Notes under the pieces: model-generated | Told to the model about the DNA's origin: nothing | Databases searched by the model: none | What the model saw: the letters and a program-made list of their open reading frames with translations, nothing else | Position numbers and translations under genes: made by a program | NCBI GenBank assembly: GCA_963815195.1 | Contig: CAWFGE010000017.1 | Coordinates: forward strand, 96,001 to 160,000 | Source: an uncultured Planctomycetaceae bacterium | Lineage (GTDB): Bacteria; Planctomycetota; Planctomycetia; Planctomycetales; Planctomycetaceae | DNA: 64,000 nucleotides | Direction: 5' to 3' | In this document: positions 37,723 to 43,902 of the stretch, one piece after another | How the letters are laid out: every line of letters starts with the position of its first letter | Numbering within the stretch: the first letter of the stretch is position 1

Positions 37723-38072
37723 AATGCGAAATTCAATCGTTTTGGCCGCGGGCTGGAAATCTTGACAACCCGCACAATCGGCAGGGGTTGTCGCGCGTTT
37801 TCGGGCGGAAGTTCAAATTCCCCAAGTAAAGCGCTATTTGGGGGATTCCCTTGACGATGAATGTTCCGTGCGTGTCGGTGATGCTGCGGAGCACTCCACA
37901 CCCAGTCCTTGGGCGGCTCCTTCACGTTGAAAACGCCGTCGCCGGAAGCCGCCCGGAGGATTGCCTTTGTTTCGGGAGAAGTTTATGCCTCACGGGACCG
38001 TCGAGGAATGGCCGTCCCGGTCATTTTTCTCGTTTTCCGTTACGCCGGTCCGCTGGAGAAGGAGTTCAAGTG

Positions 38073-38297
38073 ATGCTAGTGCTGTCAAGACAGCGGGACG
38101 AGAGCATCATCATCGGGGACGACATCGTAATTACGATTGTCAATATCCGAGGTGATAAAGTTCGCCTGGGGATTCAGGCCCCCAAAGAGATCCCCGTTCA
38201 CCGCCAGGAAGTTTACGACGCGATCAAGAGACAGAGCGCTTCGCCGAACGCGCCGGACTCGGTTGCGGATCCCACGGATTCGGAAAATGCTTCCTGA
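38073..38297 (+). CDS. csrA: Carbon storage regulator
   Basis: [18 protein letters not shown]...[28 protein letters not shown]. Confidence 0.97.
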
Positions 38298-38594
38298 CAG
38301 CCCGCCTGCGGATTGGCCCCTGAGACCCGTCCCGCCCGCTTCCCCTTTTGGCACTGGCGCGATTCATCCGCGCGGGGTTTCCCTAAGGGCCAAGCCCATG
38401 CGGTTGTTCTGGGCGCGAATTGAAGGATGCCCCCTCGGCGACGGTTGCATCGGCCGCAACGATCTTGACGCCGTGATTCCCATTTCCATCGCATTCCGGG
38501 AATTCCCTTTAAGTTCCTCAGCGTTTCCCATTTTTTCTGACCGATAGTTTGCTGAAGAGAAGTTTCACGGGCGTTTCCGCTTTCCAACCGCGCG

Positions 38595-38859
38595 ATGCGG
38601 GATGACAACGAAGACAGCGGGGGCGTCGTTTGGATGAAACCGATCCCCCAATCCGCTTCCGAAGGACTCGGCCGACTCCCCAGAACCCCGGCCCCTTCCC
38701 AAAGCGACCACGAAACACAACAAATGCGGTGACACGTTTTTCCGGTGGAAACCCGATCGGCGGGTCATCCAGGACGAAAACAACCCCTTTGCCAGCCGCA
38801 GGAACAATCGGTCCGGCAGTTTCCAACGGAACCAGCACACAGAGAAAGGGTCTTCCTTC
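38595..38859 (+). promoter_or_regulatory. Flagellin leader with multiple GGA motifs (candidate CsrA sites)
   Basis: GGA at 38600, 38632, 38664, 38747, 38772, 38801 and 38828; CCGA-AGGAC-TCGG and GTTT-GGATG-AAAC place GGA in loops. Confidence 0.55.
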
Positions 38860-40989
38860 ATGTCTCGAATCAACACAAACATCGCCGCCCTCACGGGCCT
38901 CAGGAACTTGAATAAAGCCAACGACCTGTTGAACACGTCGTTGACGCGGCTCTCGACGGGCCTTCAAATCAACTCCGGCAGAGACAACCCGGCCGGTTTG
39001 ATCGCCAGCGAATCGCTGCGGTTGCAGGTCACCAGCATCGAGCAGTCCATCAAAAACAGCAACCGGGCCAACGACGTGATTTCCACGGCGGACGGGGCAC
39101 TTGGGGAAATCAACGGGCTCTTAAGCCAGGTTCGCGGCCTGGTGCAGGAAGGCCTGAACGACGGGGCGTTATCCCAGTCGGAAATCGAGGCGAACCAGCT
39201 CCAAATCGACGCCGCCCTCTCCGCCATCAACCGGATTTCCTCGAACACCACCTTCGCCGGCGACAAGCTCATCGATGGCAGCAAGGCGTTTACGACCACC
39301 GTCTCCACGGCCGACTCGGCCAAGCTCGACGACTTCCGCATCAACGAAGCCTTGCTCGGCACGAGCGGTCAAATCGATTTGAACACCGAGGTCACCTCCG
39401 CCGCCGAGAAAGCCCAACTGCGATACGCCGGCGGCGACTTGACGGGCGCGTCCACAATTGAAATCTCCGGCTCCAACGGCCAGGAAGTGTTGTTCCTGGG
39501 CGGGTCCAGCACGGTGCAAAACATCCGCGACGCCGTGAACAACGTCTCGGATTCCACCGGCGTGACAGCCCGCGTTTTGGACGGGGCATCGCAGACGATC
39601 GCCGCCACCCAATCCGCCGCGACCTTGGATTCCGCCGCCGCCAATGCCGACGTGACCTTCACGCGGGTCGACGCCGGCACCGATGCGACCTTGGGCGGAA
39701 AAGTCTCTGTGTCCTTTGTCGATCCCGGGGCCGCCAGCCAGAGTCTGGGCGTCAACACCACCGTCAATTCCAACGGCGACGTGGACATTGTGGTCAGCCT
39801 GGCCACGGACGGGGCCTCGGCCATCACCTCCACGGCCGACGACATTCAAAACCTGATCAACAACGACGCCACCGCCAGCCAATACGTCACGGCGGCCGAA
39901 GAAGGCACGGGAGCGGGTGTGGTCGATGCCATCGCCGCGACCGACCTGACCGGTGCCCTGGACGCGGGCACGCTGAACTTCATCGACGCCCGCCCCACCG
40001 GCTCGGCCGGGACCGTGAACGTCGTTCTGGCCGATCCGGGTGCCAACAACTCGCCCTTGGGCGTGTCGGTGTCCACGAGCGGCAACGATTCCACGGTGAC
40101 CGTCAATCTCGCCACCGACGGCACCGGCACGATCACCTCGACCCTCGATGAGATCGCCGCCGCGATTCAGAACGACAGCACCGCCAGCGGGTTGATCGAC
40201 GCCAGCGTGACCGGCGAGGGCAACTCGGTCTCCACCGCCCTCGGCTCCACGGCGCTCGACCAAACGAACGGCTCGGTCCTCGCCTTCGAAAGCGCGAACT
40301 ACGGATCCCGCGAGTTCGTGGGCCTCAACGTCCTCGACGGCACCTTCGACACCACCGGCTCCGACAACACCACCGAATCCCGCCGGGACACCGGAGAGGA
40401 CATCGGCGTCACCGTCAACGGCCAGGCCGCCGAAGGCGACGGGCTGAAAGCCACCGTGCGGAACTCCACGCTCGACGCCTCCTTCAGCTTCGACAAAGAC
40501 AGCAACGCCGTCGGCACCACCGCGACCGTTCAGATCACCGGGGGCGGGGCGCTGTTCCAGATCGGCCAGGAAGTCTCCGCCGCCGGCCAGGTCGGGATCG
40601 GCATCGACGCCGTCAACACCGCCCGTCTCGGCGGCATCACCGGGAAGCTCTACGAACTCGGCACGGGCAACGGCAAAAGCCTGCTGGACGTGAGTGCCGG
40701 AAAAGCCAACGGGGCCGACCTGGTCAGCATCATCGAAGAAGCCCTCGACCGCGTCTCCACGCTCCGGGGCCGATTGGGATCGGTGCAGAAAAACGTGATC
40801 GAGACCAACGTCTCCACGCTGGGCGTGGCCTTGGAAAACATCTCCGCGGCCCGCAGCGAAATCACCGACACCGACTTCGCCTCCGAAACCGCCGCCCTCA
40901 CCAAAGCCCAGATTCTGCAACAATCGGGCATCTCCGTGTTGTCCATCGCCAACCAGGCCCCGCAGCAAGTCTTGAAGCTGCTCGGATAA
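38860..40989 (+). CDS. fliC: Flagellin (709 aa)
   Basis: RINTNIAAL...RLSTGLQINSGRDNPAGL; C-terminal SEITDTDFASETAALTKAQILQQ...QVLKLL. Confidence 0.97.
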   Translation: MSRINTNIAALTGLRNLNKANDLLNTSLTRLSTGLQINSGRDNPAGLIASESLRLQVTSIEQSIKNSNRANDVISTADGALGEINGLLSQVRGLVQEGLNDGALSQSEIEANQLQIDAALSAINRISSNTTFAGDKLIDGSKAFTTTVSTADSAKLDDFRINEALLGTSGQIDLNTEVTSAAEKAQLRYAGGDLTGASTIEISGSNGQEVLFLGGSSTVQNIRDAVNNVSDSTGVTARVLDGASQTIAATQSAATLDSAAANADVTFTRVDAGTDATLGGKVSVSFVDPGAASQSLGVNTTVNSNGDVDIVVSLATDGASAITSTADDIQNLINNDATASQYVTAAEEGTGAGVVDAIAATDLTGALDAGTLNFIDARPTGSAGTVNVVLADPGANNSPLGVSVSTSGNDSTVTVNLATDGTGTITSTLDEIAAAIQNDSTASGLIDASVTGEGNSVSTALGSTALDQTNGSVLAFESANYGSREFVGLNVLDGTFDTTGSDNTTESRRDTGEDIGVTVNGQAAEGDGLKATVRNSTLDASFSFDKDSNAVGTTATVQITGGGALFQIGQEVSAAGQVGIGIDAVNTARLGGITGKLYELGTGNGKSLLDVSAGKANGADLVSIIEEALDRVSTLRGRLGSVQKNVIETNVSTLGVALENISAARSEITDTDFASETAALTKAQILQQSGISVLSIANQAPQQVLKLLG

Positions 40990-42599: not shown

Positions 42600-42968
42600 C
42601 TAAGAGTGCCGGAGGTACAGGACCAGACTGTAAACCACGACTCCACCCACGACAACCGTGGCAAATTGGAGAAGGCGGGCGGCGATGTCTTCGCGTTTGC
42701 GGGCGATGATTTGTGAGATCACGGTGACGAAGGCGACCATGAAAAACTTGTAAAACACCATGCCCTTGATGTTCCAACGGTGAAAGAAGTACGCCGCCAC
42801 CGGGTTGCCTTCGGTGAAACCGGGCTGCCGGAGGAGGAAATACGTCATAAACACGTCCAAAGCGCTCACGAGCAGAAACGCGACGGTTTCGGCCTCCAGC
42901 GGCAATTGTCCGCCGAGGAGCGACTGGCTTTTCTTTCGTTTCGTCCGTTTTCGCGTTGGCTTGGACAT
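42600..42968 (-). CDS. Small membrane protein, DUF5658-like
   Basis: LDVFMT, EGNP, YK motifs; three hydrophobic helices. Confidence 0.75.
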   Translation of the reverse strand: MSKPTRKRTKRKKSQSLLGGQLPLEAETVAFLLVSALDVFMTYFLLRQPGFTEGNPVAAYFFHRWNIKGMVFYKFFMVAFVTVISQIIARKREDIAARLLQFATVVVGGVVVYSLVLYLRHS

Positions 42969-42999
42969 CGGGCGGCATTCGTGGGTGATGGCTCGTTTC

Positions 43000-43327
43000 G
43001 GTTTCCTGAAAACGTGCAGGAACTGACGTGACAAGTCGCCGTTTTTCGCTTGTAACGACCCACCACAACGTTCACTTTCGGGAGTGTTTCGAGTGCGTTC
43101 AGATACACTTGTTGGCGATCTCCGCGAGTTCCCATCCTAAGAGCGGTAAAATAATAGATCGAGATCACATCGTCGTCTTGTCGCAGTAACTCGAAGTATT
43201 TCTGAAGGTTAAGCCATTTGTGGGCCGTCCCCTTTATTGATCCATTGTACATGTTGAAGCCATCAACATACACAAAGCTGCGGGGTTTTGGATTTTTCGT
43301 GAACGAATTCCCTTGATTTTGCGTCAT
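43000..43327 (-). pseudogene. 3'-truncated NYN (LabA/DUF88-type) ribonuclease remnant
   Basis: VYVDGFNMY, KWLNL, YYFTA, QQVYLNAL; the EEK..DV and SGDSD motifs are missing; AT-rich. Confidence 0.75.
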
Positions 43328-43671
43328 CACAATATAAACTTCCTGCTGGATTTGACGATAAATGAAAACGACTCCCCGGCGTTTTTGCCGGTTAGGCGAC
43401 CTATATGGTCGCTTTTTTATTTGGCGACATCCAAATAGCCTCGCCACGACCACGCCTCCCCGCGATCATTCCGGGTTTTTCCCCAACTCCGTGAATGTCA
43501 TTTTTGCAAAAACGGATCCGAAATGCTTTGTAAACTTTGCATTTTCGGAAGAATCCGCAGTCCCAGCCCTCGGAATTCCCCTAGAGGTCGTTTTTCACAA
43601 GTCGTTTTATAATAACATGTTGCGGAATATGCCTGCCTCAATTCCCCATTTTCGCGGTCCGAAAATCCCCA

Positions 43672-43688
43672 CTGGCACACGGCGTGCT
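43672..43688 (+). promoter_or_regulatory. Sigma54 (-24/-12) promoter
   Basis: CTGGCACACGGCGTGCT: GG-N10-GC, close to YTGGCACG-N4-TTGCW; IHF-like AT-rich tract at 43598-43622. Confidence 0.75.
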
Positions 43689-43698
43689 TTGGTTTGGG

Positions 43699-43902
43699 AG
43701 CAGAGTGAGAGAGGCTCAAGAGATGCAAAAACAAGGGTGAGAGCTTGTTTCCCGCGACACTCTTGAGCAGAGAAAGAGAGAGAAATTGACCCGCCGGCCC
43801 GTGGAGACGGGCCTCCCCCACCTCAACATTGGCACCCCCCGTGCCACACTCCCCGACAGAGCCAAGAGGATTCCCGCATCCTCTTGGCTCCTTTCCTTTT
43901 TT
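43699..43902 (+). ncRNA. Candidate sigma54-dependent structured small RNA (~200 nt)
   Basis: Four hairpin domains, a purine-rich linker, C-rich tracts and a terminator; no plausible ORF. Confidence 0.65.
43859..43902 (+). terminator. Intrinsic terminator
   Basis: Perfect 13-bp stem GAGCCAAGAGGAT/ATCCTCTTGGCTC then CTTTCCTTTTTT. Confidence 0.85.

Follow-up and report, generated by a model that had tools for sequence, protein, structure and literature searches.

The window analysed here is a stretch of 64,000 nucleotides from an uncultured Planctomycetaceae bacterium, and the question it raises is what is encoded between positions 43,672 and 43,902, in an unannotated region upstream of hflX that begins with a sigma54-like promoter box. 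A preliminary description, made from the sequence alone, proposed a structured small RNA for this region, and the box, stems, purine tract, hairpins and terminator that it listed are each found where it had placed them (Table 1). Taken together with the comparative evidence below, the region almost certainly holds a real sigma54-type RNA gene and belongs to a Planctomycetaceae family of small RNAs under sigma54 and enhancer control. Upstream of the RNA gene are DUF5658 and UDPGP genes in divergent orientation, hflX begins 474 nt downstream, and csrA and a flagellin gene are located about 5 kb away; the sequence around the RNA is the same at locus L010 and in the same-genus genome G003. The gene is single-copy, as no paralogue was found in its own genome by blastn or nhmmer. 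One further model match in that genome (L104) was rejected because it has no promoter and resembles an ordinary terminator.

The preliminary description had proposed a comparison with Rfam, and no family was matched either by the window region, for which nothing came near a gathering score, or by 16 homologous loci; for six related loci the best scores were far below the gathering cut-offs. The family is, on this comparison, previously uncatalogued. The open-access literature searched, PMC10632474 included, names no such RNA.

Table 1. Predicted features of the RNA gene and its upstream region, in window coordinates
Feature	Position	Strand	Remarks
Distal upstream activator (enhancer-like) site, TGYA-N5-TRCA type	43496..43508	.	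Predicted site, putative function
Proximal upstream activator site, about -170	43529..43541	.	Predicted, motif match
sigma54 -24/-12 promoter box	43672..43688	+	Predicted +1 near 43699
Predicted non-coding transcript	43699..43902	+	About 204 nt; promoter spacing, terminator and folding z-score of -4.74 (0 of 200 shuffles as stable)
5' purine motif, GUGAGAGA type	43702..43714	+	Near the 5' end in many homologues, missing from some
P1, variable 5' domain	43714..43768	+	Outer stem 43714-43722/43760-43768, inner stem 43729-43735/43744-43750; apical loop 43736-43743 with UGAG
Purine-rich linker (GAGA repeats)	43769..43785	+	GAGAGA 121 vs 16 in dinucleotide shuffles (65 transcripts)
C-rich element CC-NN-CC directly 5' of P2	43788..43795	+	Kept in 63 of 69 homologues
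P2, central conserved hairpin	43796..43813	+	Loop GGAG 43803-43806
C-rich spacer with CCCACC-type repeats	43813..43858	+	C-rich tract 43813-43824; CCCACC enriched
P3, optional small hairpin	43830-43846	+	Subset of homologues only
Intrinsic terminator hairpin	43859-43890	+	13-bp; conserved CCCGC loop 43872-43877; U-rich tail to 43902

Transcription of the gene is predicted to depend on sigma54. Scored against the -24/-12 consensus, the promoter box reaches at least 9 in 65 of the 67 homologues with enough upstream DNA and is weaker in the other two, compared with a box in 83 of 1248 control windows. Upstream of the box, within 260 nt, a palindromic TGYA-N5-TRCA site that is often doubled occurs in 51 of 66 homologues (shuffled control: mean 3.1, maximum 9), mostly at positions -142 to -206. 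The pair of such enhancer-like sites at the window locus was missed in the preliminary description. A stricter form of the motif accompanies only 4 of the 134 intergenic sigma54-like sites of the window's own genome, which suggests that the activator of the RNA gene would be fairly dedicated to it. The sequence-level marks of a sigma54-controlled sRNA gene are found: a conserved -24/-12 box, a putative upstream activator site, rpoN in the host genome and a terminator.

Predicted transcripts of the homologues measure 107-372 nt (median 183). Their core consists of the CC-NN-CC element, P2, the C-rich spacer and the terminator, preceded by a 5' part that is free in length and hairpin number; within P1 the size and number of hairpins differ between lineages, and two minimal forms, L051 and L100, have no P1. 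In the homologue search with covariation that had been proposed for the locus, both modelled helices, P2 and the terminator, covary. On an alignment fitted to the structure, 17 of 19 pairs are changed on both sides, comprising 7/7 in P2, where 96.7% of cells are paired, and 10/12 in the terminator; 185 cells are changed on both sides compared with 43 after shuffling, and slid controls are far lower. A MAFFT alignment points in the same direction, with 9 of 19 pairs changed on both sides. The P2 loop contains GGA in 54 of 69 homologues and UGAGA in 12, the remaining 3 being misaligned. The terminator loop contains CCCG in 56 of 69 homologues compared with 25 of 376 ordinary terminators of the same genome, and by this comparison it is more than a stop signal. 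A pseudoknot between the P1 loop and the C-rich tract was considered and rejected, as no covariation was apparent by eye and the tracts persist without P1. Long forms of the RNA (300-370 nt) occur in genus g67 (L039, L118 and L127) and genus g57 (L096, L098, L102 and L106), where the 5' domains carry many extra conserved hairpins unrelated to GAGA loops.

The reach of the family depends on the search used. The RNA was detected by blastn in 7 of 61 genomes. Applied as an exact pattern, P2 matched in 21 of 301 family genomes, all of them true homologues on inspection, and in 33 metagenome contigs, of which 23 are homologues and 10 chance matches. A covariance model built from 23 sequences (R1) gave matches in 77 of 150 family genomes, and its successor built from 69 sequences (R2) in 76 of 150, with one copy each at E<=1.5e-7. 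Five weaker matches with a promoter box were counted as real (G005, G195, G202, G100 and G034), and four weak matches in which the box is absent were not (G004, G006, G010 and G020). The RNA is therefore placed in about 81 of the 150 family genomes searched, a figure obtained by scoring 22 candidates per genome, for which the remaining genomes are to be read as not found rather than absent. Outside the family, R2 gave weak matches in 9 of 91 class genomes; six of them have a -24/-12 box and terminator, and five have the CCCGC loop. These six differ in body and neighbours and are thus distant relatives at most. A search of the phylum returned 9 matches in 8 genomes outside the family, none with a -24/-12 box, and these were set aside as terminators or chance. 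Searches of plasmids and of viral contigs gave no match to the RNA. Other families of the class also contain sigma54-promoted, terminator-ended RNAs (L195, L200 and L206 in family f3, L198 in family f78, L205 and L197); L195, L200 and L206 have in common GGA-containing elements, a conserved hairpin, a CCCGC terminator loop and an adjoining ABC transporter gene.

The preferred reading of the RNA's role, held tentatively and at slightly less than an even chance, is that it acts as a decoy for CsrA-family proteins. The preliminary description had remarked in passing that the loop GGA might bind CsrA; judged by motif and gene content only, this is the best-supported mechanism. An enhancer-binding protein on the sites at -150 to -205 would activate sigma54 RNA polymerase, which would make an RNA of 110-370 nt ending at its own terminator. 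The RNA would present ribosome-binding-site-like [G/U]GAG loops on one to six hairpins and would titrate one or several CsrA-family proteins, of which the host has 4-18, so that their target mRNAs could be translated. A second module, composed of the C-rich elements together with the CCCGC loop of the terminator, would serve as a pairing seed or as a second protein site, an arrangement known from McaS and other dual-function RNAs. The gene, promoter, enhancer-like site, structure, motif enrichment and host gene content are computed; transcription, binding partner and effect are what we infer from them.

Several lines of evidence argue for a CsrA decoy. Hairpin loops with [G/U]GAG number 96 compared with 14.0+-3.8 after shuffling and occur in 59 of 65 transcripts, and loops with GGA number 64 compared with 24.0+-4.3, both counts being inflated by the relatedness of the homologues and by a seed pattern that contained GGAG. 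In some lineages the [G/U]GAG loops are multiplied to five or six: L121 and L141 have five GGAG loops each, and L201 has UGAGA three times in addition to GGAG and UGAGA hairpins. Multiplication of loops is how protein decoys grow. CsrA was found in all 150 family genomes with 4-18 matches each (10 in the window's own genome), and FliW was found in a single one, which is 6%-contaminated. Of the regulators tested, CsrA alone occurs in every genome, since Hfq occurs in 1 of 150 genomes and, in five genomes all carrying the RNA, ProQ was found in 0, KhpA/B over the cut-off in 0 and RRM in 2. GGAGA is enriched before the start codons of the own genome (464 vs 85), a count based on gene calls made here, for which Shine-Dalgarno strength partly guided the choice of start. 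In a divergent csrA subfamily, all 10 copies examined, drawn from 8 genomes, are preceded by a -24/-12 box at a distance of about 105-135 nt, in agreement with the enrichment of csrA under sigma54 in Planctomycetia that is reported in PMC12316311. The member of this subfamily in the own genome lies at G000:C12:163591-163970 (L209), and the other copies are L217-L225.

Other observations fit a CsrA decoy less well. GGA as a whole is not enriched in the 65 transcripts (251 vs 302 shuffled), loops with A-N-GGA are no commoner than expected (2 vs 2.9 shuffled), and two or more GGA loops are present in only 8 of 65 transcripts and three or more in 2 of 65, with one in the window copy. The stem of P2 is strong, with 7 bp, and closes a loop of only 4 nt; SELEX ligands of Escherichia coli CsrA mostly had short stems and 6-nt loops (PMC7652899). 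Binding of UGA by CsrA is not reported in the portions of the literature examined, 12 of 69 P2 loops have UGAG without GGA, and in the own genome UGAGA is not enriched before start codons (77 vs 59). CsrA specificity does vary, and PMC13443453 has two CsrA homologues tolerating a change from GGA to GAA, UGA not being shown there. Because CsrA is present in every family genome and the RNA was found in about half, co-occurrence cannot serve as a test of their link. The decoy model also leaves the C-rich module unexplained.

The chief competitor of the CsrA decoy is a base-pairing reading. In it the RNA would be an Hfq-independent sRNA whose open C-rich elements, CCCACC and CCCGC, pair with G-rich mRNA sites, the GGAG loop only recruiting CsrA as a chaperone or stabiliser. 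CCCACC occurs 77 times compared with 15 in shuffles, with a mean unpaired probability of 0.78, and CCCGC is likewise enriched and open; the minimal forms have lost P1 but not P2, the C-rich tract or the terminator, and the prevalence of the CCCG terminator loop points the same way, as does a second sigma54 RNA family that comprises hardly anything besides a hairpin with a CCCGCA loop. Against this stands a weak test, confined to one genome and to gene calls made here, in which the pairing of three C-rich segments with 5811 start regions did not exceed that of shuffles or of coding controls, the top targets formed no coherent set, and the motif complements were not clearly concentrated at starts. 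The same test lends no support to the earlier suggestion that the C-rich tracts pair with Shine-Dalgarno sequences. In addition, the two middle bases of the element 5' of P2 vary, and L201 is without a C-rich tract. On balance a base-pairing sRNA is judged unlikely. The 5' C-rich element was also considered as a partner for the leader of a sigma54-type csrA; this was rejected, as the 9-bp match, seen in the genus of the window's genome, falls inside a leader hairpin and is not kept in 8 other copies.

More doubtful still is that the RNA is a decoy for some other nucleic-acid-binding factor with a preference for purine- or C-rich RNA, or else a mimic of Shine-Dalgarno and anti-Shine-Dalgarno signals. 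Such a factor might be Rho, ribosomal protein S1, a cold-shock protein or a planctomycete sRNA chaperone that recognises CCCGC loops. The most enriched 4-mer is GAGA rather than GGA (326 vs 130). Judged by eye, the purine motifs are similar to the complement of the 3' tail of the genome's own 16S rRNA, and certain C-rich motifs are similar to that tail itself. A cold-shock-like gene has a -24/-12 box too, and the CCCGC loop recurs in an unrelated RNA family. No candidate protein was found, however, the counts for RRM, KhpA/B and ProQ being those given above.

The family with the recurring loop is also sigma54-promoted. Its RNAs are 80-95 nt long and have, besides a long terminator, a single hairpin whose apex is always GUUGGCCCGCAC. 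It is present in 69 of 150 family genomes, compared with 1 for a control pattern, and has no Rfam match, the best being Pxr at 26.6 bits against a cut-off of 80. Its four copies in the own genome lie at G000:C7:310376+, C10:123708+, C18:236864- and C18:236558-, and the loci recorded for the family are L226-L228 and L230-L241. Its CCCGCA hairpin loop matches the terminator loop of the window RNA, which points to a common target or a common protein as a possible explanation, and the shared loop is what keeps both the base-pairing and the other-protein alternatives alive. Direct pairing of the two RNAs was rejected, being no better than shuffles for 9 of 9 pairs. In a broader and somewhat unlikely version of the preferred reading, the RNA would be an antagonist of an expanded planctomycete CsrA family whose paralogues read both UGAG and GGAG, and the CCCGC loop common to the two families would mark an Hfq-free sRNA network with its own chaperone or common targets.

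A further alternative is that the RNA acts in cis. At 23 of 69 loci hflX follows on the same strand, 86-869 nt away, and at 19 of 69 a transglutaminase-like gene precedes, with both at 9 loci; all of these counts are lower bounds, the flanks being short. The ancestral site of the RNA gene likely lay between these two genes. A cis-acting leader or attenuator of hflX would account for the downstream position of hflX, and by eye the 5' arms of P2 and of the terminator are complementary to each other. Such a leader is nonetheless highly improbable, since hflX was seen to follow at only those 23 loci. A Pfam-confirmed downstream gene is convergent in at least 10 loci (L005, L007, L086, L103, L117, L121, L124 and L128 among them), many other loci have unrelated genes downstream, and the gap at the window locus is 474 nt. 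In the complete genomes G085, G149 and G031, hflX and the RNA are far apart, with no such RNA upstream of hflX. The DNA upstream of hflX in other families shows no such RNA among the loci listed, and an HflX search of genome contigs returned one locus. The unrelated and convergent downstream genes, together with the separation from hflX in complete genomes, give the RNA gene the pattern expected of a trans-acting one. The proposal of a novel sigma54-driven, trans-acting structured RNA is thus borne out as far as sequence comparison reaches: promoter, enhancer-like site, structure and terminator are kept in about 80 genomes amid changing neighbours.

Just as improbable as an hflX leader is a small-protein mRNA, or a set of DNA-level signals without a functional RNA. 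The claim that only a 5-codon ORF is present holds for ATG, the sole ATG ORF of the transcript having 5 codons; left unmentioned were GTG/TTG frames, which comprise three of 8-14 codons and a GTG frame of 9 codons, some frames running off the 3' end. No ORF is conserved across the homologues, in which ORFs measure anything between 0 and 54 codons and indels occur freely, and the helices covary, as the 185 cells noted above show, and have G-U pairs on the RNA strand, which speaks against signals at the DNA level. The earlier suggestion of Hfq binding, taken as an Hfq-dependent, Qrr-like sRNA whose purine tract binds Hfq, is the least probable of all and appears largely refuted: one hfq gene is present in the own genome and sigma54 with enhancer control is a likeness to the control of qrr, but Hfq (Pfam PF17209) was found in 0 of the 149 other family genomes, both searched same-genus genomes included, and the lone hfq is probably acquired or contaminating foreign DNA, as the second hflX that adjoins it is only 42-44% identical to the window hflX. 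This hfq lies at G000:C23:581030-582625 (L146), with the second hflX following it.

Comparison with known systems places the family beside the Csr and Rsm RNAs without joining it to them. In common with CsrB/CsrC and RsmX/Y/Z, its members are free-standing non-coding RNAs with their own terminator, repeat a purine motif in hairpin loops at a lineage-dependent copy number, and live in hosts that have CsrA and in which, 1 of 150 genomes apart, FliW was not found; with CsrB and RsmZ they also share GGA in a conserved hairpin loop, that of P2. They differ in usually having one GGA loop, compared with 22 GGAs in CsrB (PMC7652899), in the motif [G/U]GAG instead of CAGGA, in an extra C-rich module, and in control by sigma54 and an enhancer where CsrB is under BarA-UvrY (PMC4682653). 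The Rfam models of CsrB, CsrC and Rsm match neither the window RNA nor 16 homologous loci. The RNA may function as Csr decoys do, yet it does not qualify as a member of the CsrB/RsmZ family.

McaS and GadY are Hfq-dependent enterobacterial RNAs. They are alike in combining two modules, a few CsrA-type loops and a likely pairing region, with a dual role according to PMC7652899, and are unlike in that there is no sequence likeness and the window family gets by without Hfq. Pxr (RF01812), from Myxococcus, has, according to PMC5568312, a sigma54 promoter with an enhancer, several stem-loops and a GC-rich host without Hfq, all as in the window family. Its covariance model matches neither the window RNA nor 16 homologous loci, and Pxr adjoins the activator gene nla19, whereas the window RNA adjoins a transglutaminase-like gene and hflX. 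CrcZ/CrcY, GlmY and Qrr are likewise controlled by sigma54 and an enhancer-binding protein. CrcZ and GlmY act as protein decoys, and the partners of CrcZ/CrcY, GlmY and Qrr are Hfq/Crc, RapZ and Hfq, respectively; the window family differs from these RNAs in partners and motifs, comes from genomes in which, the window's own apart, Hfq was not found, and has no Rfam match. Cuckoo/CcsR and RsaE are C-rich anti-Shine-Dalgarno sRNAs with repeated open C-rich motifs, a feature shared by the window family. Its motif is CCC[A/G]C, located mostly in linkers and the terminator loop, it has no Rfam match, and in the one genome analysed no excess of pairing at start regions was seen for the window RNA.

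PMC4682653 proposes that Planctomycetes perhaps use FliW. In Planctomycetaceae genomes this route is apparently not usable, as FliW was found in 1 of 150 of them. The family has many CsrA paralogues with neither known control route found, there being no CsrB/Rsm match at the RNA loci either. For the CsrA antagonist that is missing, the RNA is a tangible candidate, being conserved, present in one copy and equipped with defined loops and a defined enhancer. If that reading is true, it would be a sigma54- and enhancer-controlled CsrA decoy outside Gammaproteobacteria; if the RNA instead pairs with mRNAs, it would represent a new Hfq-independent sRNA family, of which the consulted portions of the open-access literature showed none in the phylum.

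Three other regions have features of their own. An AT-richer insert at window positions 42866-43453 (-), upstream of the enhancer, is absent from same-genus loci; it contains an ORF piece that runs into the DUF5658 gene and has no Pfam match, and that presumably resembles an NYN/PIN-type nuclease. At window positions 37851-40989 the flagellin gene lies directly 3' of csrA, which is the classic CsrA-FliW arrangement; no fliW was found in the genome, and ACGGA occurs in the flagellin leader a short distance 5' of the ribosome-binding site. In the region at G000:C3:1565+, a sigma54-like site precedes a CRISPR-array-like stretch in which a unit of 35 nt recurs, separated by variable spacers.
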